DNA of 64,000 nt from Methanoculleus sp. (GCA_011048835.1 DSDF01000045.1:3565-67564); one strand, 5' to 3'. Counted from the stretch's first letter, positions 833 to 59,731 are shown. Notes: generated by a model from the sequence alone, not told the origin. Numbers and translations: made by a program.

Positions 833-864
833 TGGAATCACCTGAAAAAGAGAGTTATTATGGT

Positions 865-1913: not shown

Positions 1914-2134
1914 TATATACCCTCAAAATTCTATTTCACAATGAGATGGGCTGACCTCTTTGAGGTAATAATTTTCGTTCGGGAATGATTTATATATTGT
2001 GGCCTCCCCCCGCGAACGGTGCATCGGCGCCGCGCCCGAAAGGCGCGGATGTCGCGGTGAGAATCATCGATTTCTGCCCGAATGCGGTCCCAGCAGGCTC
2101 ATGTCTTATATGCGCGGCTGGCGAACAGTGTACA

Positions 2135-11656: not shown

Positions 11657-11747
11657 AGGACCTCTCCGCCGTGGCTGCGTGCAGGTGCCGCCAGCAAATT
11701 TTATCCCCGCGTGCGCCCCTCCATTTCCGGAGGGAAGAGACCTGGCG

Positions 11748-12290: not shown

Positions 12291-12298
12291 GGCGATCG

Positions 12299-14236: not shown

Positions 14237-14254
14237 TACGGGAGGTGACGAAAT

Positions 14255-16702
14255 ATGGCCGAAGAGCATGACCCGGGTGATCAGCAGGCGGAAGAGCGCT
14301 ACATCTGCATCCACGGTCATTTCTACCAGCCGCCGCGCGAAAACCCGTGGCTTGACGCGGTGGAAGTGCAGGACGACGCGTATCCCTACCATGACTGGAA
14401 CGAGCGGGTCTGTGCCGAGGCCTATACACCAAACGATTCGGCGCGTATTCTCGATGCAAGGGGAGAAATTGTCGATATCGTCAGCAACTACGAGAAAATC
14501 AGCTTCGATTTCGGGCCCACGCTGCTTGCGTGGATGGAGGAGCATGCACCGGAGGTCTACGCAGCAGTGCTCCGTGCCGACCGGGACAGCAGGAGGAGGT
14601 TCTCGGGCCACGGCAGCGCCATCGCCCAGTGCTACAGCCACCTGATCATGCCCCTCGCACCCGAATCCGACCGCCGCATGCAGGTGATCTGGGGGTGCCG
14701 GGATTTCCGGCACCGGTTCGGCCGGGCGCCGGAAGGGATGTGGCTCCCGGAAACGGCGGTGGACCTTCCAACTCTCGATTTCATGGCCGAACAGGGGATC
14801 CGGTTTACCATTCTCGCCCCGCACCAGGCGGCACGGGTGCGCCCCCCGGACGAGGATGTCTGGTGCGAGGTGGCGCGGGGGAGTCTCGACACCTCGATCC
14901 CCTACCGCTGCATGCTCCCTTCGGGGCGCACCATCGATCTCTTCTTTTTCAACCGCCCGATTGCCGACGCTATCGCTTTTGGCGACCTGTTGAAGAGCGG
15001 CAGGCGGCTGGCGGAGCGGTTGAGCGGATGCCTGCCCTCCTGCACCGGTCCGGCGCCGCTGCTGCACGTCGCCACCGACGGGGAGACCTTCGGCCACCAC
15101 CACCGGTTCGGTGAAATGGCCCTCGCATACTGCCTCCGGGAGATCGACGATCAGGGCATGGGCACCCTCACCATCTACGGCGAGTACCTCGACCGGCACC
15201 CTCCCTCCTGGGAAGTGGAGGTGCGGGAAGGGACGTCGTGGAGCTGCAGCCACGGTATCGAGCGCTGGCGGTCCGACTGCGGGTGCCAGACGGGAGGTGA
15301 TCCCCACTACCGGCAGGGGTGGCGGGCACCGCTCAGGGCGGCGATTGAGGGGCTGCGTGCCGGGGCCGGATCCTGCCTCGACGAGGCCCTCCCCCGCCTC
15401 GTGAAGGATCCCCGGGGCGCGTGCGAGGACTATATCGAAGTGCTGCTCGTTCGCAACGCCGATACCGTGCGCCGGTACCTCGCCTCCCATGCCCGGCACC
15501 CCCTCTCCCCCGACGAGGAGGTGGCGCTTCTCAGGCTGATGGAGATGTACCGGCACGCAATGCTCATGGCGACGAGCTGCGGATGGTTTTTCTACGACAT
15601 CGCCGGCATCGAGGCCGTGCAGGTGCTCAGGAACGCGGCGCGGGTGATGGACCTGCTGCGCGAGGCAGGAGTGCAGGATCCCGAGCCCGCGTTCCTCGCC
15701 ACGCTGGCGCTGGCGGAGAGCAATTTTCATGAATGCGGCAACGGTGCGGAGGTCTACGAGCGCTTCGTGCGCCCTGCGGTTGTGGACCTTCCCCGCGCCG
15801 CCCTCCACGGTGCGGTGCGCAGCCTCTTCCCCGCGCTCGCCGTCGACGGCGCGTGGTACCATTTTACCGTCGGCTATGAAGCCTTCGAGTGTGTCTCGTC
15901 GGCGGTGGGAACGCTCGCCACGGGCAGGATCTACCTCCGCTCCGGCCTCACGCACGCCGAAGGTACCTACATGGTTGTTGCGTTTTTCGGCGCGGATCAG
16001 CGGATCGCTGCCGGCGCCGGGCCCCCCTCTATGCCGCACCCTGCGGAGCTCCCCGGAGCGCTGCACCGCGGCGATGCGGAAACGGTCGTGCGCCTGATCG
16101 CGGAGGCGTACCCGTTCCGCGTATCCAGCTGGGGGGATCTCTGCAGGGATGAGCGCCGGCGTATCTTCGAGCACCTCCTCGATCCCTCCCAGCAGTCGTT
16201 CCATCGCGCAAACGAGAGCGTCGCCGACCGGCATGCCGCGTTGCTCCGGGAGCTCGTGAAAGGGCGGGTCCGGCTCTCCCCGTCCCATGAGACCTGGCTC
16301 GCGGCGGCCCTCGGGGACCGTCTGGCACAGATGCTTTGCGCCGATCGCATCGATGTCGCCCGCCTGGCCCCCGTAGCCGTACAACTGCGCCGCCTTCCGG
16401 AAAAGACGGATCCTGTGCCTTTGAACCGTGCATTCTCCACAGCGCTCTCCCGCATGTGTGCGGCCCTCGCCCGCAACCCTGACAACCGCGAGCTGATGGA
16501 TGACATCCTCCTTCTCTTCGCCTCGCTCGATGCCCTCCCCCTCTGCCCCGATCTCCGCGAATGCCAGACCATCATGTTTGCGCTCGCACGAGTGCACCTC
16601 GCGCCGCAGCGCGAGCGGTCGGCGCAGGGAGATGCTGAGGCGAAGGCCTGGGTGGACGGGCTGCAGCGGATCGCCGGCCGCCTGGGGATCCATACCGGGT
16701 AG
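14255..16702 (+). CDS. GH57-family alpha-glucan enzyme with a long C-terminal extension (DUF3536-like)
   Basis: The N-terminus ICIHGHFYQPPRENPW and the later TDGETFGHHH match GH57 conserved regions. 815 aa. Confidence 0.8.
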   Translation: MAEEHDPGDQQAEERYICIHGHFYQPPRENPWLDAVEVQDDAYPYHDWNERVCAEAYTPNDSARILDARGEIVDIVSNYEKISFDFGPTLLAWMEEHAPEVYAAVLRADRDSRRRFSGHGSAIAQCYSHLIMPLAPESDRRMQVIWGCRDFRHRFGRAPEGMWLPETAVDLPTLDFMAEQGIRFTILAPHQAARVRPPDEDVWCEVARGSLDTSIPYRCMLPSGRTIDLFFFNRPIADAIAFGDLLKSGRRLAERLSGCLPSCTGPAPLLHVATDGETFGHHHRFGEMALAYCLREIDDQGMGTLTIYGEYLDRHPPSWEVEVREGTSWSCSHGIERWRSDCGCQTGGDPHYRQGWRAPLRAAIEGLRAGAGSCLDEALPRLVKDPRGACEDYIEVLLVRNADTVRRYLASHARHPLSPDEEVALLRLMEMYRHAMLMATSCGWFFYDIAGIEAVQVLRNAARVMDLLREAGVQDPEPAFLATLALAESNFHECGNGAEVYERFVRPAVVDLPRAALHGAVRSLFPALAVDGAWYHFTVGYEAFECVSSAVGTLATGRIYLRSGLTHAEGTYMVVAFFGADQRIAAGAGPPSMPHPAELPGALHRGDAETVVRLIAEAYPFRVSSWGDLCRDERRRIFEHLLDPSQQSFHRANESVADRHAALLRELVKGRVRLSPSHETWLAAALGDRLAQMLCADRIDVARLAPVAVQLRRLPEKTDPVPLNRAFSTALSRMCAALARNPDNRELMDDILLLFASLDALPLCPDLRECQTIMFALARVHLAPQRERSAQGDAEAKAWVDGLQRIAGRLGIHTG

Positions 16703-16754
16703 GAGAGGATTTATCACGGGTGTGGATCCGTACCAGGGGTACGGAAGGTTTCAG

Positions 16755-18254
16755 ATGGCATCGAGAGCATGCGGCATACTGGCGCACATCACGTCCCTGC
16801 CCTCAGGTTTCGGCATCGGCGATATGGGGCCGGGAGCCTGCTGTTTTGTGGACTGGCTCGCACGCGGCGGGCAGCGGTACTGGCAGATCCTGCCCATCAC
16901 CCCGGTCAACCCGGGCGGTTCGTGGTCGCCGTATCATGCGACCTCTGCGTTCGCCTGCAATCCCCTGCTTGTCAGCCCCGAACTCCTCTGCAACGACGGC
17001 CTCCTCGATCGCCCAGAGATCGAGGGCTGCCCCTCATTTCCCGGGGACCGGGTCGATTTTCCGGCGGTTCTGGATTGCAAGCGCCGGCTCCTCGACCTCG
17101 CCTGCCGGCGGTGCATCGAAGACGGGGTGCTCTCTCCTGAATACGAACGATATGCCGCAGCGAACGCAGGCTGGCTCGATGAATATGCGCTCTTTTCCGC
17201 CATCAAATCGCATTTCAGGGGCAAGAGCTGGGTCCACTGGCACCCCGACCTGCGCACCCGGGCCCCCGGTGCCTGTGCGGAGATGGCACTCCGCCTGCAG
17301 GACGAGATCGCCCGGGAAAAATGTTCCCAGTTCCTTGTTGCGCGGCAGTGGGAGGCGCTCAGGAGGCACTGCGAAATGCGCGGGGTACAGGTTATCGGCG
17401 ACATGCCGGTCTACGTCGACCATGACAGCGTTGATGTGTGGGCCCACCAGGAGTTCTTCAACCTGGACGCTGAGGGGCATCCGGTCACCGTTGCCGGCGT
17501 GCCACCCGACTACTTCAGCGAGACCGGACAGCGCTGGGGAAATCCTGTCTACCGGTGGGATGCGCTCCGGAATGCGGGGTTCTCGTGGTGGATCGATCGA
17601 GTGGCGCGCAACCTTGCCCTCTTCGATCTGGTGCGCATCGATCATTTCCGGGGTCTTGTCGCGTACTGGGAGATCGATGCAGGAGAACCAACAGCCATCC
17701 ACGGCAGGTGGGTCTCCGCCCCGGCGGGCGCGTTCCTCCGGTCCCTGCAGAGGCATTTTGCCTGTCTTCCCCTCATCGCCGAGGACCTGGGTGACATCAC
17801 CGCCGATGTGCGCGAGGTCATGCGCGAGTTCGGGCTTCCTGGGATGCGGGTGCTACAGTTTGCCTTTGGCGAGAATTCTCCCGAAAGCCCCCATATCCCG
17901 CACAATGTGGAGCGGAACTGCGTCTATTATACCGGCACCCACGATAACAACACCTCTCGCGGCTGGTACGAGGGGGATGCAGGCCCCGGCGAGAGGCACC
18001 GGCTCTCCCGGTACATCGGCCGGGAAGTACCATCGCAGCACGTGCACAGAGAGGTGGTCCGCCTGGCGCTGATGTCGGTCGCGGATCGGGTGGTCATCCC
18101 GCTGCAGGACGTGTTGGGCGTCGGTGCGGAGGGGCGGATGAACCTCCCCGGCACCGTCTCGGGCAACTGGGCCTGGCGCGTGCTCCCCTCGCAGGCGGGG
18201 GACGATGCGGCGGATCGCCTCGCCGAGCTCTGCGCGCTCTACGGCAGGAAATGA
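16755..18254 (+). CDS. malQ: 4-alpha-glucanotransferase (amylomaltase, GH77)
   Basis: From the ATG at 16755 the protein reads MASRACGILAHITSLPSGFGIGDMG, with VPPDYFSETGQRWGNPVYRW and RIDHFRG (GH77 motifs). Confidence 0.9.
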   Translation: MASRACGILAHITSLPSGFGIGDMGPGACCFVDWLARGGQRYWQILPITPVNPGGSWSPYHATSAFACNPLLVSPELLCNDGLLDRPEIEGCPSFPGDRVDFPAVLDCKRRLLDLACRRCIEDGVLSPEYERYAAANAGWLDEYALFSAIKSHFRGKSWVHWHPDLRTRAPGACAEMALRLQDEIAREKCSQFLVARQWEALRRHCEMRGVQVIGDMPVYVDHDSVDVWAHQEFFNLDAEGHPVTVAGVPPDYFSETGQRWGNPVYRWDALRNAGFSWWIDRVARNLALFDLVRIDHFRGLVAYWEIDAGEPTAIHGRWVSAPAGAFLRSLQRHFACLPLIAEDLGDITADVREVMREFGLPGMRVLQFAFGENSPESPHIPHNVERNCVYYTGTHDNNTSRGWYEGDAGPGERHRLSRYIGREVPSQHVHREVVRLALMSVADRVVIPLQDVLGVGAEGRMNLPGTVSGNWAWRVLPSQAGDDAADRLAELCALYGRK

Positions 18255-18266
18255 CGTCGGGGCGGG

Positions 18267-18587
18267 TTATATGGGGGTCTTTCCAAGACGGAGATCGTCG
18301 ATGATATCGGCGAATTCTTCTAGCGTGAATGCCTTGAGCGTGCTGATGGTGACGACTCCCTGCACCGTGAGGCCGAGGATGAAGTCCATGGCATCGCGGT
18401 CCTCAGGCGCGTCCCCGATGGCAACGAAATCGTATTCTCCCATGACGGGATAGATTTGCAGATTGCCCTTGCAGCACATGTCAAAAATCTGGTTCGCCCC
18501 ATCGATCCACTTGATCGTGTTTTTCAGTTCATTCCTCCCTTTATCCGTCAGTTTCAACAGGAAAATGTACTTGGACATCCTTTTCAT
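18267..18587 (-). CDS. GYD-domain small protein
   Basis: MSKYIFLLKLTDKGRNELKNTIKWIDG...PVMGEYDFVAIGDAPED contains the GEYD/GYD motif. The start is M23 or M26 of the track ORF. Confidence 0.6.
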   Translation of the reverse strand: MKRMSKYIFLLKLTDKGRNELKNTIKWIDGANQIFDMCCKGNLQIYPVMGEYDFVAIGDAPEDRDAMDFILGLTVQGVVTISTLKAFTLEEFADIIDDLRLGKTPI

Positions 18588-18688
18588 CCCACGATGCGCA
18601 CCTTTGCACCCGGGGTATATGAAGGATTCGGGAGATCGGGAAACGGCATTCATTCCACTATGGGTCCGGTGGTCAGGGCGCCTTTCTA

Positions 18689-19987: not shown

Positions 19988-20082
19988 CTCCTCCTGCCGC
20001 AGTGCGGCATCGCATGAACAACCGGAATGCCGCGCTCACTGTCTCTTAAACGATTCCATCCATAAGAATGTGTCGGGGAAAC

Positions 20083-28029: not shown

Positions 28030-29145
28030 ATGGGAATGAAATCACACACCTGCATCGCAGTATGCATCCTATTTCTGGCGCTGACGCTGGGGGGAGGCTG
28101 CCTCGAGGCCGTGCTCGGTTCCTGCCCGCCGGCCGAGTACCCGCGCATCGTTCCTGCAGATCTGGCTGGCCCCATGCAGCCTGCGACCTTTTCGTACCGG
28201 TTTATGAACGATGCGGTAACCGTCACCGTCCCTCTCGACGCAGGCATCTACGAGGGCGCTCGAAACGCGGATAAGTTTGCGTATCTCTTCGAGGATCTGG
28301 AGGAGGAGGAATGGCTTGCCGGGTACTACCGGGCGTTTGTATTTGATGAACATCTCGACGGCCTGTTTGCCGGTCTGCACGACGCCTTCGCATCCGTCCG
28401 GACCACGATGGACCTTGACGATGACGAATGTCTTGAACTCATGGCGGTGTTCGTCCAGTCTCTCCCCTACGAGAGCGATGATGCAGCCGGAGAACCCCGG
28501 TTCCCCATCGAGACGATCGCGGACGGGAGGGGCGACTGCGATGACAAAAGCATTCTCCTTGCCGGCCTGCTCGCCCGGGAAGGCTACGACGTCGTGCTGC
28601 TCTTTTTTAAGCCCGAACAGCACATGGCAGTCGGCGTGCGGGCCGACGGGTGCTCGTACGGCACGACGGGCTATGCGTTTATCGAGACCACCAATGTCAG
28701 TTTTGTGGGCGTGGCTCCTGCCGCGCTGGAGGACGGGCTGGCGATCAGCTCCGATCCGGTCGTGATCCGGATCGGGGAAGGGATGAAGGGGTACGGGAGG
28801 TGTGACCAGACGGCGTATATCGACGCTGCGCTGCATGACGTACTGGACCGGATTGCATCCGGAGAACCGGACCTCCGGCGTGCACACGATGACCTGGCGG
28901 CGGCGTATGCGTCCCTCGAGGAGCTAAGAACGAGAATGGATACGCTTGCGGCGTCGGGGAGAATCGGGGAGTACAACAGTCTCGTCCCTGACTACAACCG
29001 GCAGGTGCAGGAGTATAATGAACAGCTGGAGGAGGTGTCCGGGCGCCAGAATGAATACAATCGAACCATCGAGGTGTACAACTACATCATCACCCACCCG
29101 CACGACCGTACGGGGACCTATGCGTGGCTGAGGGAGCATGCCTGA
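28030..29145 (+). CDS. Putative lipoprotein with a transglutaminase-like cysteine-protease core and a C-terminal coiled-coil/xYN repeat tail
   Basis: A signal peptide with lipobox-like LALTLGGGC; GRGDCDDKSILLAGLLAREGYDVVLL...HMAV...ETT (a Cys-His-Asp/Glu-type core pattern); and a C-terminal EYN/DYN/EYN/EYN/VYN periodic motif. Confidence 0.55.
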   Translation: MGMKSHTCIAVCILFLALTLGGGCLEAVLGSCPPAEYPRIVPADLAGPMQPATFSYRFMNDAVTVTVPLDAGIYEGARNADKFAYLFEDLEEEEWLAGYYRAFVFDEHLDGLFAGLHDAFASVRTTMDLDDDECLELMAVFVQSLPYESDDAAGEPRFPIETIADGRGDCDDKSILLAGLLAREGYDVVLLFFKPEQHMAVGVRADGCSYGTTGYAFIETTNVSFVGVAPAALEDGLAISSDPVVIRIGEGMKGYGRCDQTAYIDAALHDVLDRIASGEPDLRRAHDDLAAAYASLEELRTRMDTLAASGRIGEYNSLVPDYNRQVQEYNEQLEEVSGRQNEYNRTIEVYNYIITHPHDRTGTYAWLREHA

Positions 29146-47791: not shown

Positions 47792-48171
47792 CCCTCGTCC
47801 TGCTGGACGCGAACGCGTTGATGATGCCGGGACAGTTCGGCATCGATCTCTTCGGGCAGATCGGTGAGCTCGTGGGGTCCTTCGAGCCCCTCGTCCTTGA
47901 AGAGGCGAAGGGAGAGCTCATGGGCTTATCCCGGGGATGCGGACGGCATGCGGCCGCAGCCCGCATGGGGCTGATCCTTGCGGAGAGGTGCACGACCATT
48001 CCCGCATCGCCCCGTGGCGGTCCGGTGGATGCGAAAATCGCCCGCTTCGCCGAAGCGCACCGGTGCATGGTGGCCACCAACGACCGGGAGCTGCGGCAGC
48101 ATCTCCTCAGCCGCGGAATAGATGTAATATTCATAAGAAAGCAGAAAACATTAGAACTGATTCGGAGTTAG
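47788..48171 (+). CDS. PIN-domain protein (Fcf1/Utp24-like, conserved neighbour of aIF2gamma)
   Basis: [12 protein letters not shown]...[13 protein letters not shown] (acidic PIN residues). The GTG start overlaps the aIF2gamma stop (GTGA). Confidence 0.65.
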
Positions 48172-48178
48172 CGATCGT

Positions 48179-48751
48179 ATGTATTACCGGGTAACACTCG
48201 AGGATAAGGTGAGGGTTCCGCCCCAGAGGCTTGGCGAAGACCTCTATAAGGTCGTTCTCAACGTGCTTCAGGAGCAGCTGGAAGGCAGCATTGACAAGGA
48301 GATCGGTATTTTCATCGCCGTGACAAAAGTGCTTGATGTCGGGGAGGGTGACCTGATCCCCGGCGACGGTGCGGTCTATTATGACGTGACGTTTGACGCC
48401 CTGGTGCTCCGGCTCTCCCTCCAGGAGGTCATCGAGGGCGCGGTGGTGGAGACCACGAGTTTCGGTGCATTTATCAGCCTCGGCCCCATCGACGCGATGC
48501 TGCACGTGAGCCAGATCTCCGACGATTTCATCAACTACGACGAGAAGAACGGACGCCTCGTGTGCCAGGAGTCAAAACGCCAGATCGGGGTGGGCGACGG
48601 GGTGCGTGCCCGTGTCGTGGCCCTTAGCCTCAACGAGCGCGAGCCCCGAGAGAGCAAGATCGGGCTGACCATGCGGCAGGCGGGGCTGGGCACGGAGGCG
48701 TGGCTCAAGGAAGATTTCGAGAAGGAGCAGGCGGAACATGGTAGTGCGTAA
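48179..48751 (+). CDS. rpo7: DNA-directed RNA polymerase subunit Rpo7 (E')
   Basis: MYYRVTLEDKVRVPP with an S1 domain (GAVVETTSFGAFISLGPIDAMLHVSQI). Confidence 0.9.
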   Translation: MYYRVTLEDKVRVPPQRLGEDLYKVVLNVLQEQLEGSIDKEIGIFIAVTKVLDVGEGDLIPGDGAVYYDVTFDALVLRLSLQEVIEGAVVETTSFGAFISLGPIDAMLHVSQISDDFINYDEKNGRLVCQESKRQIGVGDGVRARVVALSLNEREPRESKIGLTMRQAGLGTEAWLKEDFEKEQAEHGSA

Positions 48752-48938
48752 AAAGCAGCAGAAGGTCTGCCGGCAGTGCCACCGGGTTGTCGACGGGGAG
48801 GCCTGCGTGATCTGCGGCAGCACTAACCTTTCCGATGATTGGGCAGGATACCTGGTGATTATCGACCCGGAGCGTTCGGATATTGCAAAAAAAATGAATA
48901 TAACCCTCCCCGGCCGGTATGCATTGAAGGTTCGCTGA
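48738..48938 (+). CDS. spt4: Transcription elongation factor Spt4 (RpoE'')
   Basis: The 66-aa product has a Zn ribbon CRQCHRVV...CVICGS and DDWAGYLVIIDP. Confidence 0.85.
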   Translation: MVVRKKQQKVCRQCHRVVDGEACVICGSTNLSDDWAGYLVIIDPERSDIAKKMNITLPGRYALKVR

Positions 48939-49429
48939 TGTACCGGCTTCCCGACAGGCACAGGGACGCATTGCGGGAACCTTTCGGGCTCCTGTTCCCC
49001 GATCTCGGTGATGCATCCGGGATGCTCGAAGGAAGGCATGTTTATTCGGTGGGAGACGTGGTCACCCACAATCTCTTGCAGCGCGGGGTTGCGCCGGATG
49101 TTGCCATCATTGACGGGTACACGCAGCGCGTCCCCTGCACCCGGACCCCGATCTTTCTCGCACCCCGTCTTGTGGTCGAGAACCCGCCGGGCACGATCAC
49201 CGAAGCGCTCATCGAGGCCATCCGCTACGCGGTGGCCCACCCGCCGGTGCTGATTTTTGTCGAGGGCGAGGAGGATCTCGCCGTGATCCCGCTGGTGATC
49301 GAGGCGCCGCCCGGTTCTGCGATCGTCTACGGCCAGCCGGGCGAGGGCGTGGTGATCCGGATTGTCGATGAGGCGGCAAAAGAACAGGCGCACGAGTATT
49401 TTGCGCTCTTTGAACGGGAAGGAAATTGA
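48938..49429 (+). CDS. DUF359 protein (GTP-dependent dephospho-CoA kinase family)
   Basis: MYRLPDRHRDALREPFG...SVGDVVTHNLL...AIIDGYTQR...VEGEEDLAVIP. The ATG overlaps the spt4 stop (TGATG). Confidence 0.7.
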   Translation: MYRLPDRHRDALREPFGLLFPDLGDASGMLEGRHVYSVGDVVTHNLLQRGVAPDVAIIDGYTQRVPCTRTPIFLAPRLVVENPPGTITEALIEAIRYAVAHPPVLIFVEGEEDLAVIPLVIEAPPGSAIVYGQPGEGVVIRIVDEAAKEQAHEYFALFEREGN

Positions 49430-49495
49430 AGGGCTGCGGTCCGGATGGATCGCCAATTTTTAAATACGTTCCTCGACAATATTTTAGGGATATCG

Positions 49496-51538: not shown

Positions 51539-52080
51539 AGATCGTGGTGGTCACCAGCAACCCGAACAAGGCCCGTGAAGTGGCGGCGTTTTTCGAAGGG
51601 GTCTGTGAGGTCGAGCATGTCCCGCTGGAGTGCCCCGAGTTCCGGCACGATGATGTGGGGGAGATCGCCCGGGAAAAGGCGCGGTTTGCCTTCGAGCAGC
51701 TGCAGGTGCCCCTGATTGCGGACGACACGGGGTTTTTCATTCCCGCCCTCTGCGGGTTCCCCGGGCCCTATGCGGCCTACGTGCTGGAGCGGATAGGCCT
51801 CGAGGGGATCGTGCGGTTGATGGAAGGGAAAGACGACCGGTCCGCGTATTTTGAAACCGCGATCGCGCTGGCGGACGGGAGCGGCGTGCGCGTGTTTCGG
51901 GGAAGGATTGACGGCCGGGTCGTCGAGCCGCGGGGCGAGGGCGGATTCGGTTACGACCCGATCTTCGAGGTCGCTGGCAGGACGCTGGCCGAACTGCCCC
52001 TTGCGGAAAAGTCAAGAATTTCTCATCGGGGCCGCGCGCTCGATGCGTTGAAGGCGTGGCTCGCAGCGGGGCAGAGATGA
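51535..52080 (+). CDS. Non-canonical purine NTP pyrophosphatase (Ham1/RdgB family)
   Basis: VVTSNPNKAREV and GFGYDPIF...SHRGRA. The GTG start overlaps the previous stop. Confidence 0.85.
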   Translation: MKIVVVTSNPNKAREVAAFFEGVCEVEHVPLECPEFRHDDVGEIAREKARFAFEQLQVPLIADDTGFFIPALCGFPGPYAAYVLERIGLEGIVRLMEGKDDRSAYFETAIALADGSGVRVFRGRIDGRVVEPRGEGGFGYDPIFEVAGRTLAELPLAEKSRISHRGRALDALKAWLAAGQR

Positions 52081-52159
52081 TCCCGGCCTTTCTGCTATCC
52101 AAACTCTTATGAGCGTGCGGTTCCTTCTTATAAGAGCAGTAATGAGGGGTAAGTGAACT

Positions 52160-52306
52160 ATGGCAAGATTTCCCGAAGCAGAGGCACGGTTGCTCAATGT
52201 AAAGATCTGCATGAAATGCAACGCACGCAATGCGCCCCGTGCAACCCGCTGCAGAAAATGCGGATACGAGAATCTCAGGCAGAAATCAAAAGAGCGGAAA
52301 GGATAA
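52160..52306 (+). CDS. rpl40e: 50S ribosomal protein L40e (48 aa; below the ORF-track length cut-off)
   Basis: Hand translation gives [48 protein letters not shown], a CxxC...CxxC zinc ribbon typical of eL40. Confidence 0.85.
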
Positions 52307-52311
52307 ACAAA

Positions 52312-52323
52312 TTTTCCTTTTTT
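52312..52323. terminator. Oligo-T tracts between the convergent L40e and DUF1917 genes
   Basis: ATTTTCCTTTTTTG: archaeal terminators are typically T-runs. Confidence 0.35.
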
Positions 52324-52329
52324 GCGCAG

Positions 52330-52980
52330 TTACGCACTGTAAAAGGTCACTTTTTTTCCTTTCTCGCTGTATTCACCGAGATAGGTCTCGATATTGCGCT
52401 TGTAGCCGATGCGCTGCTCGACGCCGAGATCGGCGAGTTGGCGCCGGACGCGCATCACGTCCACTTCGTCCTCCCAGTTCTCCGTATACACGTAGATCAC
52501 TTTCCGCGTGTCCCGTGAATCGGGGTTTGGTTTGGCGGTGCTCACCTTGGCGGAGATTCCCAGCGTTCCCCGGCAGGTCGCGTCCCGGATGCGCTGCCAC
52601 ATGGCGTCCACCTCGTCCTCGTCGAGGAAGATGAGCCATTTCCCTCCCTTTTCATTATCGACTTCCTCGGGGCGATATCCGGGGCCGTCCTGGATGATCC
52701 AGTACATCTGGGTGGTCCGTGTGGGGGTAACGCCTTCTCCCTGGCGCAATTGAGCGTAGATGCCTTCTGGGTGCGTGAACCGCTGAAGAAGCGCCTCGGC
52801 AAGCTGCGGGTAATCCTCATGAAATAATGCGAAAATCTCTGTGAAATCCTGCAGGAAATCGATCTCCTTTTCCACCAGTTCAAAAAGAACGTGGCCGCGG
52901 GCCTGCAGTTCCTTGTTCAGAAGAATTTCGAAGAGGCCGTATGCCACATCTCCGAGTGCATGCTCTTCGGCGTTTTCCAT
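52330..52980 (-). CDS. DUF1917-like (Bles03-like) protein
   Basis: GKWLIFLDEDEVDAMWQRIRDATCRGTLGISAKVST...VIYVYTENWEDEVDVMRVRRQLADLG...IGYKRNIET matches my recollection of the DUF1917 pattern. The start is at MENAEEH. Confidence 0.5.
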   Translation of the reverse strand: MENAEEHALGDVAYGLFEILLNKELQARGHVLFELVEKEIDFLQDFTEIFALFHEDYPQLAEALLQRFTHPEGIYAQLRQGEGVTPTRTTQMYWIIQDGPGYRPEEVDNEKGGKWLIFLDEDEVDAMWQRIRDATCRGTLGISAKVSTAKPNPDSRDTRKVIYVYTENWEDEVDVMRVRRQLADLGVEQRIGYKRNIETYLGEYSEKGKKVTFYSA

Positions 52981-53089
52981 AGTAGATTGTTGAAAAAAGC
53001 GACAAAAAAATATTTTCATTCTCATGGAGGGGCAGCGGCCCCGAGAAAAAATGCGTCCTGCGGCCGTTCTCGCATGCGAAAACCCCGTT

Positions 53090-53860
53090 TCAGCGCATCG
53101 TTTCCAGGATCAGGGTGGCCGCGCGTTCGCCGGATAGAAGCATTCCCCCAAAAATCGGGCCCATGCGGTGTTCGCCCGCGACCGCGTTGGCCGCCATGCC
53201 GGTGACGACGAGCCCGGGGAAAATCTCTCTGGTGTGGCCGACGATCATGGCTTCGGCGCGGTCCGCCCACATCGGCCCCTCTCCGGCCACGGTCACCATG
53301 CCCCCCTTGGACGCCACCATGTGCGCCACCACGGCGTCATGGCCCGTGGCGTCCACGGTATAGCGGCAGGCGATGGTGAGCGGGTCGACATGCAGCCCCG
53401 CCATCTCCACCGGCGTCCAGTTGATGACCAGCCCGCTCACCCTCCGGTCGTCCTTGATAACGACGTCTTCGACGAAGGTGAGGTTGAAAAATTCCGCACC
53501 CGCGTCGCACGCGGCGGCGGTCAATTTCGCCACGGCCTCGACGGACTTTGCCACGTAGTATCCCTCCTCGAAGGCTTTGCAGGCGATGGAGAAGTGGTCG
53601 AGCAGCCGTTTCGCCTCCTCCTGAACGACGATGCGGGGAAACATCATCCCTCCTCCCCACATCCCCCCGCCGATGGAGAGCTTCTTTTCGATCACGCCTA
53701 CCTTCACCCCCTGTTCGCCAAGGAGGGCGGCACAGGCGAGGCCTGACGGTCCCGCACCCACCACGGCAACCTCGAGATCCACGTAGTCGAGCATGACCCT
53801 ACTCTGCTCGGAGAGAATCGCCCGGGTTATCGTCACCTCATTGAGTTTCATCTTCGTCAC
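53090..53860 (-). CDS. thi4: Thiazole synthase Thi4 (archaeal type)
   Basis: VAVVGAGPSGLACA (FAD/NAD fold), IGGGMWGGGMMF, and DATGHDA with no Cys in this motif. That fits the sulfide-dependent archaeal class, based on my recollection of the motif. The start is GTG 53860 or ATG 53851. Confidence 0.85.
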   Translation of the reverse strand: MTKMKLNEVTITRAILSEQSRVMLDYVDLEVAVVGAGPSGLACAALLGEQGVKVGVIEKKLSIGGGMWGGGMMFPRIVVQEEAKRLLDHFSIACKAFEEGYYVAKSVEAVAKLTAAACDAGAEFFNLTFVEDVVIKDDRRVSGLVINWTPVEMAGLHVDPLTIACRYTVDATGHDAVVAHMVASKGGMVTVAGEGPMWADRAEAMIVGHTREIFPGLVVTGMAANAVAGEHRMGPIFGGMLLSGERAATLILETMR

Positions 53861-54068
53861 GCACCAGTTAGGTGGGTGCGGAAACTAATAGTATTTTATA
53901 TTGCGTTTGATGTTCTGGTGCGGTTGTGGACGTCTCCGAACGCTCTTTTCCGGGGGACGACGTCAAGCAGGTCTGTGGCCGGCGCGACGACGGCGAGCGG
54001 GGAGGTGTGCCTGGCTATCCTGCCTGCAGGCGAATATATTTACCCGCAGAATAGAATATTTGAGTAGG

Positions 54069-54950
54069 ATGAAATGGAAACGTGACTTCGGGCTGACCCT
54101 GCGATCCCTGCTCACGGGGTTTCTGCTCCTTATCGTATACCTGATATTCCTCTCGGTGCTGTTCGTGCTTTTCCCGGGAATGAGCATCCAGGGGTATGTG
54201 CTGATCATCGCATTGTTTGCGTTCATCCAGTACTACTTCTCCGACAAGATGGTGCTCTGGAGCACGGGCGCCCGTATTGTGGAGGAGGATGAGTACCCTG
54301 AGCTCCATGCCATGGTGGCGCGCCTGAGCGCAGAAGCCGATCTTCCCATGCCGAGGGTGGCGGTCATGCCCTCGCCGGTACCGAACGCGTTCGCCACCGG
54401 CAGGAGCCCGAAGGCCGCAGTGGTGGCGGTGACCGACTCCATTATGCGCCTGCTTGACCGCGACGAACTCGAGGCGGTGCTGGCCCACGAGCTGAGCCAC
54501 GTGAAAAACCGCGATGTGCTCACCATGACCGTCGCCAGTTTCTTGAGCATGCTGGCGTTCATGATCATGCGGTATGCCCTCTTCTTTTCGATGGGCAACC
54601 GGCGGGAGAGCGGCGGGATCCTCCTTGCATGGATCGTCTCGATCATCGTGTGGGTCGTGAGCACGCTCTTGATCAGGACGCTCTCCCGGTACCGGGAATT
54701 TGCCGCCGACCGCGGGTCGGCTTACATCACCGGCAACCCGCGGGCCCTGGTCAGCGCGCTGAACAAGATCAGCGGGCGGATGGACCGGATCCCTGCGGAG
54801 AAGAAGAAGGAGGTGGAGGGCGCAAACGCCTTCTTCATCATCCCTGCGCTCTCGGGCCAGAGCCTGATGGAGCTCTTCTCCACCCACCCCCCGCTGGAAA
54901 AAAGGGTGGCGGCGCTGGAGGCCCTGGAATCCGAACTCCGCGGGTATTGA
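54069..54950 (+). CDS. htpX: Membrane zinc metalloprotease HtpX
   Basis: HELSHVKNRD (HExxH), four TM segments, and C-terminal STHPPLEKR. The start is at MKWKRDF. Confidence 0.9.
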   Translation: MKWKRDFGLTLRSLLTGFLLLIVYLIFLSVLFVLFPGMSIQGYVLIIALFAFIQYYFSDKMVLWSTGARIVEEDEYPELHAMVARLSAEADLPMPRVAVMPSPVPNAFATGRSPKAAVVAVTDSIMRLLDRDELEAVLAHELSHVKNRDVLTMTVASFLSMLAFMIMRYALFFSMGNRRESGGILLAWIVSIIVWVVSTLLIRTLSRYREFAADRGSAYITGNPRALVSALNKISGRMDRIPAEKKKEVEGANAFFIIPALSGQSLMELFSTHPPLEKRVAALEALESELRGY

Positions 54951-54983
54951 GAGAGGGAGTGTGGGCTCCCCCTCTTCACACGG

Positions 54984-54996
54984 ATATTTTAATAAT
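54984..54996 (+). promoter_or_regulatory. TATA-like box upstream of the tRNA pair
   Basis: ATATTTTAATAAT lies about 35-40 nt before the tRNA-Gly 5' end. Confidence 0.35.
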
Positions 54997-55027
54997 TTGT
55001 CACGCACAAGTATGTAGGCAATACGGT

Positions 55028-55098
55028 GCATCGATGGTCTAGTGGCATGACTTTGGCCTTCCAAGCCAATAGCCCGGGTTCAATTCCCGGTCGATGCA
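55028..55098 (+). tRNA. tRNA-Gly (anticodon UCC)
   Basis: Hand-folded cloverleaf: acceptor GCATCGA/TCGATGC, anticodon stem TTGGC/GCCAA with loop CTTCCAA, T-arm CCGGG-TTCAATT-CCCGG. No encoded CCA. Confidence 0.9.
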
Positions 55099-55111
55099 TT
55101 GTACCACAGGC

Positions 55112-55185
55112 GGGCTCGTGGTCTAGCTGGTTATGACGTCGCCTTCACACGGCGGAGGTCTCGAGTTCGAATCTCGACGAGCCCA
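55112..55185 (+). tRNA. tRNA-Val (anticodon CAC)
   Basis: Acceptor GGGCTCG/CGAGCCC, anticodon stem TCGCC/GGCGG with loop TTCACAC, T-arm TCGAG-TTCGAAT-CTCGA. No encoded CCA. Confidence 0.9.
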
Positions 55186-55457
55186 TCCCTATTCTCCAAA
55201 TAAGAATCGTATCGGTTTTCTGATTCGGCTACATTGCTTTTCTTTTTTATTCGCTCTTTGTTCCTCATGCAATGCAACTGCAGTCGCTGCTGGCGTATCG
55301 CATCCGCATTCCATGCCAACATACGTCTATTATTCGGGTTTTCAGGCCTTTGTGTCACGAAACGAATGATTCTATATTTTCTCGTGTGACGTTTTCCGTT
55401 TCAGTATCCGGCTGTATTGCGGGATTGAGGATTAACAAGACGCCATACTGAAAAATG

Positions 55458-55465
55458 TATAAATA
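55458..55465 (+). promoter_or_regulatory. TATA box (TATAAATA) for the rhodopsin gene, implying a leaderless or near-leaderless mRNA
   Basis: It is centred about 27 nt upstream of the ATG at 55489 and preceded by an A-rich BRE-like GAAAAA. No SD-like sequence lies between them. Confidence 0.5.
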
Positions 55466-55488
55466 CTACCGGTCAGCATCCCTCGGCC

Positions 55489-56097
55489 ATGGCAAGCGAG
55501 ATCATCGTCTTTCAAATCGGCGCAATGATTTTTGCAGCGTCTTCCGTTGTGTTCCTGGTTGGCGGCACGAAAAAACTAAATTTCGACACGGAATTTTTTA
55601 TCAGTTTCATCACCAGCATGAGTTATGTGGTGATGAGCCTGGCCATAGCGACGACCGTTGCACTGGGAGGGGGGACAATTTACTGGTCGCGGTGGTTGTT
55701 CTATATGGCGGCCTGTCCTTTGCTGATGTATGATGTCGTGAGAATTTCGACGGGATCAACCCGAGAGTATCCCGTATTTGCCCTCCTCACCTGCCTGACC
55801 ATGTTCAATGGATTTCTTGCCAGCTTCGTCGTAAGCTCATCCCGGTGGATTTTCTTTCTCTTTGGTTCTGCGGCATTCATAGGCCTTCTTTATATGGTTT
55901 CGCGGGGCCAGAAAAACCGTGCCTCAAAAACGCTCAAACCATTCGTCTACATCGGGTGGTCCCTGTTTCCGGTAGTATTTCTCCTTGCTCCGACTGGTTT
56001 TGGAATCTTCGACGCCCCCGTCACGGCATTCCTGTATCTTCTGCTTGATCTGGTGACGAAACTATGGTTTGGCATCATTACGATCAGGATGAAGTAG
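55489..56097 (+). CDS. Microbial (type-1) rhodopsin, schizorhodopsin-like, 202 aa
   Basis: Seven hydrophobic helices. Helix 3 IYWSRWLFYMAACPLLMYDV aligns to bacteriorhodopsin IYWARYADWLFTTPLLLLDL. Helix 6 reads WSLFPVVF (BR: WSAYPVVW). Helix 7 DLVTKLWFG aligns to BR DVSAKVGFG, placing the Schiff-base Lys at K191 (AAA, 56059-56061). Confidence 0.85.
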   Translation: MASEIIVFQIGAMIFAASSVVFLVGGTKKLNFDTEFFISFITSMSYVVMSLAIATTVALGGGTIYWSRWLFYMAACPLLMYDVVRISTGSTREYPVFALLTCLTMFNGFLASFVVSSSRWIFFLFGSAAFIGLLYMVSRGQKNRASKTLKPFVYIGWSLFPVVFLLAPTGFGIFDAPVTAFLYLLLDLVTKLWFGIITIRMK

Positions 56098-56540
56098 CCT
56101 GCACGTGGCAGAGCGCTCCACATACGAAGCACGAGGAGCGGTTGCACCATATATTCCATCGCCTGAAACGGCATCGTGTGGTCCTCCTCCGAACCAGGTC
56201 CCCTGAACAGTATCCATTTAATAAGCAAAGAGCAGATTTCCCGAAATTTCAAAGACAACCAGCAGTGTATCTATCGCCCGGGCTGCAATCAGGGATGCTC
56301 CCCGGAAGGGTGGATCGTCCGTATCAGGGCATCGAATCCTGAATGCGTATCGCAGCGGATCGGGTCCGGCCCTGGGGGACCGCGGCCAGCACGGTGCAAA
56401 TAGACCAACATTTTTTATACAATCTCGAGGATTCTCGAAGCGGACTTTCGGGGAGCGTAGAGGAGATCCCGCGGGCCGGGTAGGGCCACAACGATCCGGA
56501 CACGCGCCCGACGCAGAAGGCCGAATGGAGAAGATTTGCC

Positions 56541-58079
56541 ATGAGAGACAGGACAGACCCTGCGAATACATTGCCGGGGAAGGCAGCGTCGTACTGGCTT
56601 GAGACGATACCGGAAACCCGCCACCCTCCTCTTTCCGGAGACATACAGGTGGATGTGGCGATCCTCGGGGGAGGAATGGTGGGTATCACCTCCGCCCTTC
56701 TCCTGAAGGAGGCCGGACTGTCGGTGGCGGTGATCGAGGCCGACCGCATCGTTCACGGCGTCAGTGGGCATACGACGGCGAAGGTCACCTCCCAGCACCA
56801 CCTGATCTATGACTGGCTCCTGGAGCAGTTCGGGATGGATAAGGCACAGATGTACGCAGAATCGAACCAGACGGCGATAGGGCGGATCGATGCTCTCTCC
56901 CGGGGGCACCGGATAGACTGCGATCTGATCTTTCGTTCTGCATACGTGTATGCCGGCACCGAGCAGTCCGAAGAGCGGATACGGGATGAGGTGCGGGCAG
57001 CCCGGAGCCTTGGACTGCCGGCGGCGTTCGATGCAGACGTGCCGCTGCCCTTTGCTACGTACGGTGCAATCCGTTTCGACAACCAGGCGCAGTTCCATCC
57101 CGGGAAATATCTCAGCGGTCTGGCCCAAACGATCCCCGGCGACGGGAGTGCCATCTACGAGAAGACACGTGCTCTGGAGATCCGGGAGGGGGAGCCGATG
57201 GTGGTGAAGACCGGGAGGGGATCCGTGCGGGCGACGGATGTGATCCAGGCGACCCATGTGCCATTCCACGACAAACCAGGGTTATACTTCGCTCGATTGC
57301 ACCAATCCCGGTCGTACGCCATTGCGGTGCGGATTGATGAGACGTTCCCAGAGGGCATGTTCATCAATGCGGAGAGTCCGGTGCGATCGCTCCGTTCCCA
57401 GCCGGCGGAGGGCGGTGAACTTGTCCTGGTCGGGGGGGATGAACATCGTACGGGAGAGGGGAATCCTACGACCGATCACTACCGCCATCTGGTTGCGTGG
57501 GCCCGCTCTCTCTACTCCGTGCAGTCCATCGACTACCGCTGGTCCACCCAGGACACCATGCCCCTGGACCGGGTTCCCTATATCGGAAGGCAGACACCGG
57601 ACCAGGATCATCTCTATGTGGCGACAGGATTCCGAAAATGGGGGATGACTGCCGGCACCGTGGCGGCGATCATCCTCTCGGATATGATCCTGGGCAATTC
57701 CAATCCCTGGGCGGAGGTATACGATCCCTCACGCTTCAAGCCGCTCAGTTCAGCCCGGCCCGCCTTTGAGCAGGTGACTGCGACGGCGAAAGGTTTCGTG
57801 GGTGCCCGGCTTACGGGAGCCCCCGAAGAGGCGTCACAGCTTGCGCCCGGCACCGGTGCGGTGGTTGAGGTGAAGGGGGAGAAGGGGGGAGCCTACCGGG
57901 ATCCTGATGGGGTTCTCCATACCTTCGATCTCTCCTGCCCGCACATGGGGTGCCTTGTTGCGTGGAATGCCGCAGAGAAGAGCTGGGACTGTCCCTGCCA
58001 TGGTTCGCGGTATACGGCAATGGGGGACGTGCTCCATGGCCCTGCGGTGAAGGGTCTCAAGAAGAAGGGTCAGCACTAA
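56541..58079 (+). CDS. FAD-dependent oxidoreductase (DAO family) fused to a C-terminal Rieske [2Fe-2S] domain
   Basis: N-terminal VAILGGGMVGITSALLL (dinucleotide fold). C-terminal CPHMGC...(17)...CPCHGSRY (CxH...CxxH Rieske motif, about 57934-58010). Confidence 0.8.
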   Translation: MRDRTDPANTLPGKAASYWLETIPETRHPPLSGDIQVDVAILGGGMVGITSALLLKEAGLSVAVIEADRIVHGVSGHTTAKVTSQHHLIYDWLLEQFGMDKAQMYAESNQTAIGRIDALSRGHRIDCDLIFRSAYVYAGTEQSEERIRDEVRAARSLGLPAAFDADVPLPFATYGAIRFDNQAQFHPGKYLSGLAQTIPGDGSAIYEKTRALEIREGEPMVVKTGRGSVRATDVIQATHVPFHDKPGLYFARLHQSRSYAIAVRIDETFPEGMFINAESPVRSLRSQPAEGGELVLVGGDEHRTGEGNPTTDHYRHLVAWARSLYSVQSIDYRWSTQDTMPLDRVPYIGRQTPDQDHLYVATGFRKWGMTAGTVAAIILSDMILGNSNPWAEVYDPSRFKPLSSARPAFEQVTATAKGFVGARLTGAPEEASQLAPGTGAVVEVKGEKGGAYRDPDGVLHTFDLSCPHMGCLVAWNAAEKSWDCPCHGSRYTAMGDVLHGPAVKGLKKKGQH

Positions 58080-58167
58080 CCCCCGGCCCCTCCTGTACGC
58101 GAAGGGGGTGTTCTGGCATCGGTCGGTCTTCGCAGGTCGGACGTTCGAATCCCGGAGAACCCGTCAA

Positions 58168-58173
58168 TTTTTT
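58168..58173. terminator. Oligo-T tract between convergent genes
   Basis: CAATTTTTTGCG lies between the stop at 58079 (+) and the stop at 58253 (-). Confidence 0.35.
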
Positions 58174-58252
58174 GCGATTCATCCCATGAAAGGGGGGTTT
58201 GGGCATTGAAATGCCCGTGAGAGCCTTGATCGGCTCAACCATCCAGTCCCCG

Positions 58253-59731
58253 CTACTCCCCGCTCCCCGGGTCGAATTTTATGGCCCGATCGTACACTAT
58301 CTCTGCGTAGGAAGGTCCGGTTTGGGTAGCTTCCTCCAGGTAGAGCCTCCATGCAATGAACATCGGCTGGTCCAGATCAATGCCGTAGCCTCCCACACCG
58401 GAGGGAACCTCGAAGCAATACTGTTCGCCTTCGCAGTCCCTGGCGACTTTATAGGCGTACAGGTACTGCGCATTCGGATTGTCCGGCAGGTACTCCCCGG
58501 CAGTTCCGTTGAAATCGGCATCGGTGATCGATCCGACGCCGTTCCAGATGTCTGCTCCATACAGGGCGAAGTTCGTGTATGTCGCCTTGCCTGTAGCGGC
58601 ATGGTTGACCCCGTAGACGATGATGAACTCATCGGTATCGTTGCCCAGCGTAAGCGGTGGCTCTCGCAGGAAGTCATAGTACTGCGTGGTGTCAAAGAAG
58701 GGCGGCGTTGGCGAATTGGCAGTCTGATTTGCGGTCCACAAGTACACGGCATCGTTGGTCGGGCCGACGGCGTCGATCCCCCGCTGGATTGCGTCACTCC
58801 CTATCGGGACTCCGGGGGCCGTCGGCAGCTGCGTGGCGCTCAGGTTGCTGTATCGTTCGAGGATCGCGCTCTCGAGTTCATCGAGGTCGTCCGTCAGGTC
58901 AAACTCCGTCTGCCCGGTTCCCCGGACTCGCAGCTCCGGATAGTCGTACGGATCCAGTTCCGTCGTGGTGGTGGGCGTCACCCGGAAGATGGTCGCCGGG
59001 GTGTTGTTGATGTACTCGTTGCCGGCCTGCGTGTCCGTGAAGAGAGCCGGGCGGATGTATACGGCGAACCTATCGGAGTCGTTCTCAAGCCCCATCCTCA
59101 GTATGGACGTGGGGAACACCTGGGTGTTCATGATGTCCTCGGAGTACCCTGCTGAGCTGGCGGCGGCGCGGATGCGCTCGTCGATCCCCCGGTCTGCCGT
59201 AGAGACGATCATCGTCGTCTGGTTGAACGGCTCTCCCGGTTCCCCACCGGTATTGATGACCAGGTTGTTCAGCGGATCGGCGATGTTGGCAAAGATCCAC
59301 CGTAGCTCGTTGTCGTACGTCCTGCTCAAGAGGTAGGGATCGTAGCTGAAGTACCGGCACTCCGGCGGTGTCCTTCCGACGAAGACGATGGCCTCATCGG
59401 GGCCGAGGCTCCAGAATGCTGATGTGTTTCCGCTCATGCCGAGTTCTTCTGTTATCGCCGCAATCCGTTCGTCCACCGCATACCCCGGGGCAGGCGGAAC
59501 GAAATATACCAGGTATCTCGTGGCAGGATTGTTGCCATATGCAGACGGCAGCACTCCTGCCTCATAGAGCTGAATGAAATCGAAGAACCCTAACTCGCCT
59601 TCCTGCACGGTGTAGCCTTCCTGTTCCAACGCCAGGCGAAACGCCTCTGTGTCGCCGAACTCTCCTTCCTGTGCAAGGGCGGGCCCTATTAACAGGGCTA
59701 CTACAAGTGAGAATAGTATATATCGTCTCAT
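58253..59731 (-). CDS. Secreted hypothetical protein, rich in N-glycosylation sequons
   Basis: A signal peptide MRRYILFSLVVALLIGPALAQ. 492 aa, with many N-x-S/T sites (NTS, NQT, NNT, NLS, NDT, NGT and others). No family was recognised. Confidence 0.7.
   Translation of the reverse strand: MRRYILFSLVVALLIGPALAQEGEFGDTEAFRLALEQEGYTVQEGELGFFDFIQLYEAGVLPSAYGNNPATRYLVYFVPPAPGYAVDERIAAITEELGMSGNTSAFWSLGPDEAIVFVGRTPPECRYFSYDPYLLSRTYDNELRWIFANIADPLNNLVINTGGEPGEPFNQTTMIVSTADRGIDERIRAAASSAGYSEDIMNTQVFPTSILRMGLENDSDRFAVYIRPALFTDTQAGNEYINNTPATIFRVTPTTTTELDPYDYPELRVRGTGQTEFDLTDDLDELESAILERYSNLSATQLPTAPGVPIGSDAIQRGIDAVGPTNDAVYLWTANQTANSPTPPFFDTTQYYDFLREPPLTLGNDTDEFIIVYGVNHAATGKATYTNFALYGADIWNGVGSITDADFNGTAGEYLPDNPNAQYLYAYKVARDCEGEQYCFEVPSGVGGYGIDLDQPMFIAWRLYLEEATQTGPSYAEIVYDRAIKFDPGSGE

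Follow-up and report, generated by a model that had tools for sequence, protein, structure and literature searches.

The locus discussed here raises the question of what a light-driven, retinal-binding pump is doing in the genome of an anaerobic methanogen: which protein it is, how its gene came to be there, and where its chromophore would come from. We give a probability of about 93% to a reading in which the protein is MsSzR, a schizorhodopsin (SzR) that pumps protons inward by the published mechanism, with a gene that was acquired horizontally and a retinal supply that lies outside the window, by which we mean the whole 64-kb stretch of DNA analysed. The gene itself is the following:

55489..56097, plus strand: MsSzR coding sequence, a schizorhodopsin-family retinal protein according to its Pfam PF01036 match, its PDB matches and its residue numbering

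This open reading frame (ORF) starts with ATG and encodes 202 amino acids plus a stop, exactly as first described, so the compact 202-residue protein proposed in an earlier, sequence-only reading is borne out. That reading had made its case depend on a rhodopsin profile hit, and the Pfam search returned Bac_rhodopsin (PF01036) at 85.3 bits (E 5.7e-24; cut-off 24.6), with the match spanning residues 4-200 of the protein and positions 3-219 of the 224 in the profile. The rhodopsin match is far beyond chance. The heliorhodopsin profile PF18761 did not match the 202-residue protein even at E <= 10, and a heliorhodopsin identity was rejected on this basis; NCBIfam yielded no meaningful match to it. 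Among known structures, searched in a copy of the PDB without the MsSzR cryo-EM coordinates, the top matches were AntR (9or2; 4.2e-29, 104.9 bits) and SzR4 (7e4g; 9.9e-29, 103.7 bits), both leading every other rhodopsin class by around 45 bits, as sensory rhodopsin II, the chloride pumps, bacteriorhodopsin (BR) and all the rest were found at 2e-15 or worse and at no more than 60.2 bits. One of the homologues (P0030) also carries the NCBI name schizorhodopsin.

The alignment of individual residues points in the same direction. We used MAFFT to align BR with 112 representatives of homologue clusters, which came from a search of around 5.8 billion proteins. The ten residues named in the sequence-only reading (R68, F71, A75, C76, P77, D82, W157, P161, D187, and K191) are all present in the translation, and every one of them falls in the BR column claimed for it (R82, D85, T89, T90, P91, D96, W182, P186, D212, and K216, respectively), including K191, whose placement in the K216 column had been singled out as decisive. 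The codons of interest are as follows:

55699..55734, plus strand: helix-3 stretch F71-Y72-M-A-A75-C76-P77-L-L-M-Y-D82, from a codon-by-codon reading and the alignment; F71 corresponds to BR D85, A75 to T89, C76 to T90, and D82, the cytoplasmic proton acceptor, to D96
56047..56049, plus strand: D187 codon GAT, the single Schiff-base counterion, corresponding to BR D212 and SzR4 D184
56059..56061, plus strand: K191 codon AAA; this Lys, which forms the Schiff base with retinal and corresponds to BR K216, does not vary among the full-length homologues
56092..56094, plus strand: codon of K202 at the C-terminus, which forms salt bridges with D82, D33, and E35 in published work

The traits of schizorhodopsins can be read from these positions. 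Phe at the BR D85 position, which is completely conserved in SzRs and AntR (PMC8040798), is present as F71; the Cys at the T90 position is C76; the carboxylate at the D96 position is D82, an Asp and not a Glu; and the Asp and Arg at the D212 and R82 positions are D187 and R68, with the counterion role of the former being known for D184 of SzR4 (PMC8040798). The compact size is found as well, since the 202 residues can be aligned over their whole length with the SzR4 chain of 210 residues, whereas alignment to longer type-1 rhodopsins requires gaps between TM5 and TM6. The trait that is absent is the Ser at the T89 position, where the protein has A75. Given that this Ala is both a documented exception and, as discussed below, a clade-wide trait, we consider it to be subfamily variation, and membership in the schizorhodopsins stands. 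Thus, with AntR and SzR4 as the best structural matches and the key residues aligned with BR, the family assignment of the sequence-only reading was correct. The same positions led us to reject two other identities. An outward proton pump of the BR type (DTD/DTE) would have Asp at the D85 and Thr at the T89 positions, where this protein has F71 and A75. The xenorhodopsins PoXeR, NsXeR, and RmXeR resemble MsSzR in being light-driven inward proton pumps with the type-1 fold, but they form a separate clade in which the proton is trapped on a cytoplasmic acceptor, and NsXeR has an Asp at the D85 position and a Pro at the D212 position, in contrast to F71 and D187 in the window protein.

The primary functional paper on MsSzR is reportedly that of Kawasaki, Konno and Inoue (2021, Chem Phys Lett). 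A recent preprint describes cryo-EM structures of two methanogen schizorhodopsins, including MsSzR from a Methanoculleus sp. metagenome-assembled genome (MAG) deposited as GenBank DSDF01000045.1 (bioRxiv 10.1101/2025.10.20.683367). The MsSzR model in that work comprises residues 1-202, and the residues cited are L30, F32, D33, E35, A75, D82, R85, I86, and K202 (10.1101/2025.10.20.683367), all of which the window ORF carries at the published numbers, with K202 at its C-terminus. The shared length of 202 residues and the agreement of every cited position imply that the ORF is MsSzR, and the protein is also 100% identical over all 202 residues to a MAG protein annotated as “hypothetical protein ENN85_04080 [Methanoculleus sp.]” (P0001). 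Judging from length, residue numbering, and identity with ENN85_04080, by which no difference was detected, the ORF is therefore the already characterised MsSzR. The earlier statement that homologues had been noted in Methanoculleus and that the family was not new holds, but this is exactly MsSzR and not a mere homologue. MsSzR comes from a hot spring and pumps protons inward in E. coli (10.1101/2025.10.20.683367 and 10.1101/2025.10.15.682728, citing earlier work); it is active up to 80 °C and has been called the most thermostable rhodopsin reported (second-hand in the same two preprints); and its cryo-EM structure at 2.67 Å contains all-trans retinal on the TM7 lysine (10.1101/2025.10.20.683367, 10.1101/2025.10.15.682728). 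Thus, the protein, its family (since 2020), and the peculiarities of A75 and D82 are already known, and, with the exact protein already studied both biochemically and structurally, the locus matters little as a discovery.

The comparison with the characterised relatives is nevertheless useful for placing these peculiarities. SzR4 (PDB 7E4G), the FSE prototype and an inward proton pump, is similar to the window protein in having around 200 residues, is alignable with it over residues 4-198 (E 1e-28), and shares the Arg, Phe, Tyr, and Cys, the W..P of TM6, the single counterion Asp, and the Lys; the identity between the two is around 33% in the HMMER local alignment and 37% in the preprint, a gap that we attribute to the alignment method. 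Two helix-3 positions differ. Glu81 of SzR4 is replaced by Asp, and Ser74 is replaced by Ala, even though S74A abolishes pumping in SzR4 (PMC8040798): in the study of Higuchi et al. (2021, PMC8040798), E81D retained activity, whereas E81Q, S74A, and the C75 mutants lost it. MsSzR further differs from SzR4 in a TM2 that is one turn shorter, in an incomplete hydrophobic gate, and in the stabilisation of D82 by K202 and R85 (10.1101/2025.10.20.683367). AntR (PDB 9OR2), the top PDB match, has an FSE-type helix 3 and is similar in family and approximate size, but it belongs to a bacterial (cyanobacterial) subgroup and is cold-adapted, and pumping persists in its E81Q mutant, which makes the carboxylate less important in AntR. 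MtSzR from Methanoculleus taiwanensis, the other schizorhodopsin from a Methanoculleus-type methanogen, is also a thermostable inward proton pump with an Asp acceptor (D87), but it keeps the hydrophobic gate, owes its thermostability to a different basis, and has a published identity to MsSzR of 44%, a figure that would be in line with separate acquisition of the two genes.

The sequence-only reading of helix 3 as “FAD” is confirmed by F71, A75, and D82 in their BR columns, but its view that this variant was an open matter did not survive, as the relevant facts are already in print (PMC7148096, PMC8040798, 10.1101/2025.10.20.683367). For instance, 58 of the 63 SzRs considered by Inoue et al. 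(2020, PMC7148096) carry a Glu or an Asp where BR has D96, and the preprint notes that around 95% of SzRs have a Ser near the Schiff base where MsSzR has A75, that no compensating extra water was seen, that MsSzR pumps despite the Ala at the S-of-FSE position, and that D33 and E35 form part of the D82 network that replaces the hydrophobic gate of SzR4 and MtSzR (10.1101/2025.10.20.683367).

What our homologue set adds is the distribution of the motif. Among the 112 representatives, FAD was found in 71, FSE in 14, FSN in 10, and FSD in 6, frequencies that are biased because the search was centred on the query. When the 96 full-length sequences were placed in a neighbour-joining tree, the common ancestor of the 65 FAD proteins spanned 69 tips, the four others being FSD or FTD; judged from this tree, “FAD” marks a large monophyletic clade. 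Within it, E35 and D82 are invariant across the 65 full-length FAD proteins, as is the Cys corresponding to C76; the equivalent of K202 is a Lys in 64 of them and ends the protein in 49; a basic residue (K, R, or H) is found at position 85 in 60; and position 33 varies between S, D, and G. The pattern of E35, D82, position 85, and C-terminal Lys is not similarly conserved in the FSE, FSN, or FSD sequences. Given this clade-wide conservation, A75 and the D82-K202-E35 network appear to be hallmarks of a large subfamily, most of which is uncharacterised, and not an oddity of a single protein. Few of the relatives carry names, and those that do are from Bathyarchaeota, Thermoproteota, Thermoplasmatota, and Methanomicrobiaceae. 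On a more speculative view, the clade would represent a mechanistically distinct schizorhodopsin subfamily that uses an electrostatic relay and does without the Ser; in the literature searched, MsSzR was the only one of its members found to have been characterised.

A separate observation concerns the FSN group (P0079-P0081, P0085-P0087, P0094, P0097, P0106, and P0107), whose members are SzR-like, have 214-217 residues, and carry an Asn at the BR D96 position, so that they lack the cytoplasmic carboxylate; E81Q abolishes pumping in both SzR1 and SzR4 (for SzR4, PMC8040798). One member is found on a contig labelled [Eubacterium] cellulosolvens (L092, 3966-4613), where none of 11 neighbours has a Pfam match, while another (L093, 10001-10492) adjoins carotenoid-type Amino_oxidase, SQS_PSY, and UbiA genes.

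Drawing on published work on MsSzR, SzR1, and SzR4, the mechanism can be outlined as follows. All-trans retinal forms a protonated Schiff base with K191, D187 is the only counterion, and F71 takes the place of the extracellular acceptor of outward pumps. Upon isomerisation by light, the Schiff-base proton exits on the cytoplasmic side, attracted by the negatively charged D82, which is kept deprotonated not by a hydrophobic gate but by a network of salt bridges with K202, R85, D33, and E35; reprotonation of the Schiff base from the outside then results in net inward proton transport. The methanogen would have received the gene for this pump horizontally from an archaeon that is not a methanogen, and for its retinal the apoprotein would rely in vivo on genes elsewhere in the genome or on neighbours in the microbial mat.

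The evidence for transfer comes from the position of the gene, for which the following features are needed:

55027-55099, plus strand: tRNA-Gly(UCC), found with ARAGORN and Rfam
55112-55185, plus strand: tRNA-Val(CAC), found with ARAGORN and Rfam, a conserved landmark directly upstream of a variable slot
55205..56239, no strand assigned: SzR-only cassette of 1,035 bp, delimited by blastn breakpoints against locus L009 at 55204 and 56240

In each of the eight Methanomicrobiales loci examined, the gene for an M48 peptidase is followed by this pair of tRNA-Gly and tRNA-Val genes. What follows tRNA-Val is variable. From 52000 to 58263, the window is collinear with a Methanomicrobiaceae MAG (M17C-73-02; L008/L002) at 91.8% nucleotide identity, and the SzR of L008 is 94% identical in protein to that of the window. 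In the equally close L009 (95% identity for the M48 peptidase and 86% for a DAO-Rieske oxidoreductase), there is no SzR: homology to the window ends at 55204, which is 19 nt past tRNA-Val, and restarts at 56240, with the slot filled by another segment of 1,765 bp containing ORFs of 266 and 161 residues. This segment (11130-12894) also has a low GC content (0.50) and two genes, and it occupies the same slot after tRNA-Val. The slot is a hot spot for gene replacement. No SzR was found within 10 kb in 77 of 80 Methanomicrobiales loci. In the window, SzR is the sole gene inside the cassette, whose GC content is 0.48 compared with 0.606 for the whole window; part of this low GC is an amino-acid effect of encoding a membrane protein, and the GC3 of SzR (0.60) is only moderately under that of the neighbouring genes (0.66-0.83). 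From this arrangement, we infer a single-gene cassette that was acquired horizontally in a variable slot by tRNA-Val, which fits the published view of SzR genes crossing phyla as well as the fact that the two SzRs from Methanoculleus are 44% identical.

Around the cassette, no direct repeats resembling att sites and copying the 3′ end of tRNA-Val were found, and the window contains no integrase. An 11-nt repeat with one mismatch (55170-55180 and 56421-56431) was considered as an att site and rejected, as it lies outside the breakpoint and was judged to be due to chance. Elsewhere, a phage-type integrase gene (L090, 11861-12811) lies 1.2 kb downstream of an SzR of the FAD clade (P0052), which hints at carriage by a mobile element in that lineage. 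The vicinity of the cassette contains a second variable spot, 2 kb from SzR: on the minus strand of the window, 58253-59731 encodes a 492-residue protein with an N-terminal signal-like sequence and no Pfam match, which is 79% identical in L009 and is replaced in L008 by Cupin_2, DUF3303, and Imm5_like genes.

The sequence-only reading had allowed for a decaying gene. The comparison with the L008 orthologue came out against decay, since dN is 0.039 and dS 0.181, giving a dN/dS of 0.215 with the reading frame intact in both, and the approximately 130 bp upstream of the ATG are almost identical between the window and L008. Judging from this ratio and from the near-invariant promoter-proximal DNA, the SzR gene is not decaying but is kept under purifying selection. 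Within the conserved upstream region, we read a putative archaeal promoter:

55450-55455, plus strand: BRE-like A-rich GAAAAA, read from the sequence, part of the inferred promoter
55458-55465, plus strand: TATA box TATAAATA of the inferred archaeal promoter, ending 23 nt upstream of the ATG

No Shine-Dalgarno sequence was visible upstream of the SzR ATG. Provided that the predicted promoter is functional, this spacing suggests that the SzR mRNA is leaderless or has a very short leader.

The question of the chromophore is raised by the content of the window. The cleavage by which the Blh/Brp-type beta-carotene 15,15'-dioxygenases form retinal requires O2. A Pfam scan of around 60 ORFs, covering essentially the whole 64-kb window, found no SQS_PSY, Amino_oxidase, lycopene cyclase, BCD/Blh, or RPE65 domain, which supports, at the level of Pfam, the earlier statement that crtB-, crtI-, crtY-, and blh-like genes are missing from this stretch. 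The downstream DAO+Rieske oxidoreductase (56541..58079) was considered as a partner in chromophore formation and rejected: it is absent from other SzR loci, and L009 has a copy at 86% identity and no SzR, so it is not a dedicated SzR partner.

Other SzR loci are different in this regard, as carotenoid genes adjoin SzR in three non-methanogen loci. In L094, the nearest relative outside the Methanomicrobiales (65% identity), Amino_oxidase, FA_hydroxylase, and UbiA genes lie by SzR (511-4277), and in L089, also of the FAD clade, there are Caroten_synth, Amino_oxidase, SQS_PSY, and UbiA genes (13088-17116) as well as a photolyase; the third, L093, is of the FSN type. Further loci of the FAD clade contain heliorhodopsin, thioredoxin and its reductase, KatG, a flavodiiron protein, SOD, and UvdE. 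Given this difference between an opsin-only cassette and opsins found next to carotenoid and stress genes, it appears, from the gene content of these loci, that the opsin came to the methanogen without the light- and oxygen-related genes found alongside SzR elsewhere. As to where the retinal would come from instead, our guess is that uptake from mat neighbours is the most economical source.

Two smaller observations were made in these loci. In two unrelated contigs, a heliorhodopsin gene adjoins an SzR of the FAD clade or lies less than 1 kb from it (L006 2651-3433/L007 1148-1930; L091 8468-9181). A SOUL (haem-binding) gene is found immediately upstream of SzR in two loci, and DUF1722 is found near SzR in two loci, with the following coordinates, which are not assigned singly to one or the other:

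L089, 9287-9808: SOUL or DUF1722
L091, 9385-9900: SOUL or DUF1722
L088, 10702-11250: SOUL or DUF1722
L089, 12051-12617: SOUL or DUF1722

Three other explanations of the locus have to be weighed against that of an acquired, working pump. The protein might serve the methanogen mainly as a sensor of light or of the redox zone, with light being a sign of nearness to the oxygenated, illuminated surface of the mat, or as a brake lowering the proton-motive force, rather than as a pump relevant to energy. Pumping protons inward lowers the proton-motive force instead of building it, the physiological role of SzRs is called elusive in the literature, and the FAD-clade loci mentioned above place the opsin among genes for light, UV, and oxygen stress (heliorhodopsin, photolyase, UvdE, SOD, KatG, and thioredoxins). 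However, no transducer, kinase, or chemotaxis genes are linked to SzR in the window or in L008, and the preprints report efficient proton transport in E. coli, so we consider this explanation possible but unlikely. Less likely still is that SzR is a recently transferred passenger, present in a strict anaerobe as a retinal-free apoprotein with no function in vivo. The missing synthesis genes in 64 kb, a cassette consisting of the opsin alone where L089, L093, and L094 have carotenoid genes beside it, and the lack of SzR in the close relative L009 would all be expected of a passenger. A functionless gene is nevertheless difficult to reconcile with a dN/dS of 0.215 at a dS of 0.18 between two lineages, with both frames intact and the promoter-proximal DNA nearly identical, all of which indicates selection for an expressed protein, or with a retinal pocket and transport residues that are fully intact. 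Retinal uptake from neighbours is, moreover, a known strategy of other rhodopsin-bearing microbes without blh, which also counts against this explanation.

The remaining explanation is that SzR does not truly belong to the methanogen, the contig being misassembled or misbinned. The atypical GC of the segment and the fact that the nearest homologues come from other archaeal phyla could be cited in its favour, but genes syntenic in Methanomicrobiales lie on both sides (upstream the M48 peptidase and the two tRNAs, downstream DAO-Rieske), the contigs that carry the protein reach 361 kb in length, the contig of its 94% orthologue has 447 kb, and the window is collinear across the junctions, at the 91.8% nucleotide identity given above, with a second MAG that was assembled independently. 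Contig chimerism is effectively ruled out by this synteny in independent assemblies, and the chance that the gene is foreign to the methanogen is close to nil.

Returning to MsSzR as a horizontally acquired inward pump, the context of the gene sharpens two questions, namely, how a strict anaerobe is supplied with retinal and what use a methanogen has for a pump that lowers the proton-motive force. The sequence-only reading had left both the source of the chromophore and the physiological role open. We can tentatively propose an answer, which we consider less likely than not to be correct: a strictly anaerobic methanogen would keep, under selection, a transferred opsin-only cassette with no chromophore pathway of its own, would obtain retinal from oxygenic or aerobic neighbours in the mat or through an O2-independent route, and would use the inward pump as a light switch acting on the proton-motive force or the cytoplasmic pH, tied to the day-night cycle of the mat. 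In the same proposal, the FAD clade, with its E35 and C-terminal Lys, would be a widespread and distinct SzR subfamily.

Regarding the host, the methanogen origin assumed at the outset is supported both by the genes of the window and by the synteny of the M48, tRNA-Gly, and tRNA-Val genes with Methanomicrobiales. The window contains methanogen or archaeal genes such as those for O-phosphoseryl-tRNA synthetase (SepRS), YcaO, AglB, eRF1, and a Kae1-Bud32 fusion, as well as Thi4, eIF2-gamma, and archaeal ribosomal proteins. A query with the M48 peptidase returned 80 loci, all labelled Methanomicrobiales or Methanobacteriota except for one 2-kb contig labelled Anaerolineales. This peptidase (54069-54950) is 97% and 95% identical to those of the two closest MAGs and only 69-74% identical to those of named Methanoculleus species (loci L008-L087), so the host may lie outside Methanoculleus sensu stricto, and the label “Methanoculleus sp.” may conceal a separate lineage at the level of genus.

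Some further observations concern the rest of the window. Between 28250 and 29550, around 1.3 kb contain long ORFs that overlap on both strands, with no gene recognisable by Pfam. Four ORFs, at 48131..48505 and 48572..49456 on the minus strand and at 16720..18072 and 28277..28765 on the plus strand, were rejected as spurious, as they overlap true genes in another frame or strand. The true genes in the stretches with spurious ORFs are as follows:

48179..48751: Rpb7
48839..49429: DUF359
16500..18254: GH77

Finally, the region from 12041 to 22305 contains glycogen and trehalose genes, encoding a GlgB-like branching enzyme, a GH57 protein with DUF3536, a GH77 4-alpha-glucanotransferase, TreT, and a TPS-TPP fusion, a block that would fit a thermophile making compatible solutes.
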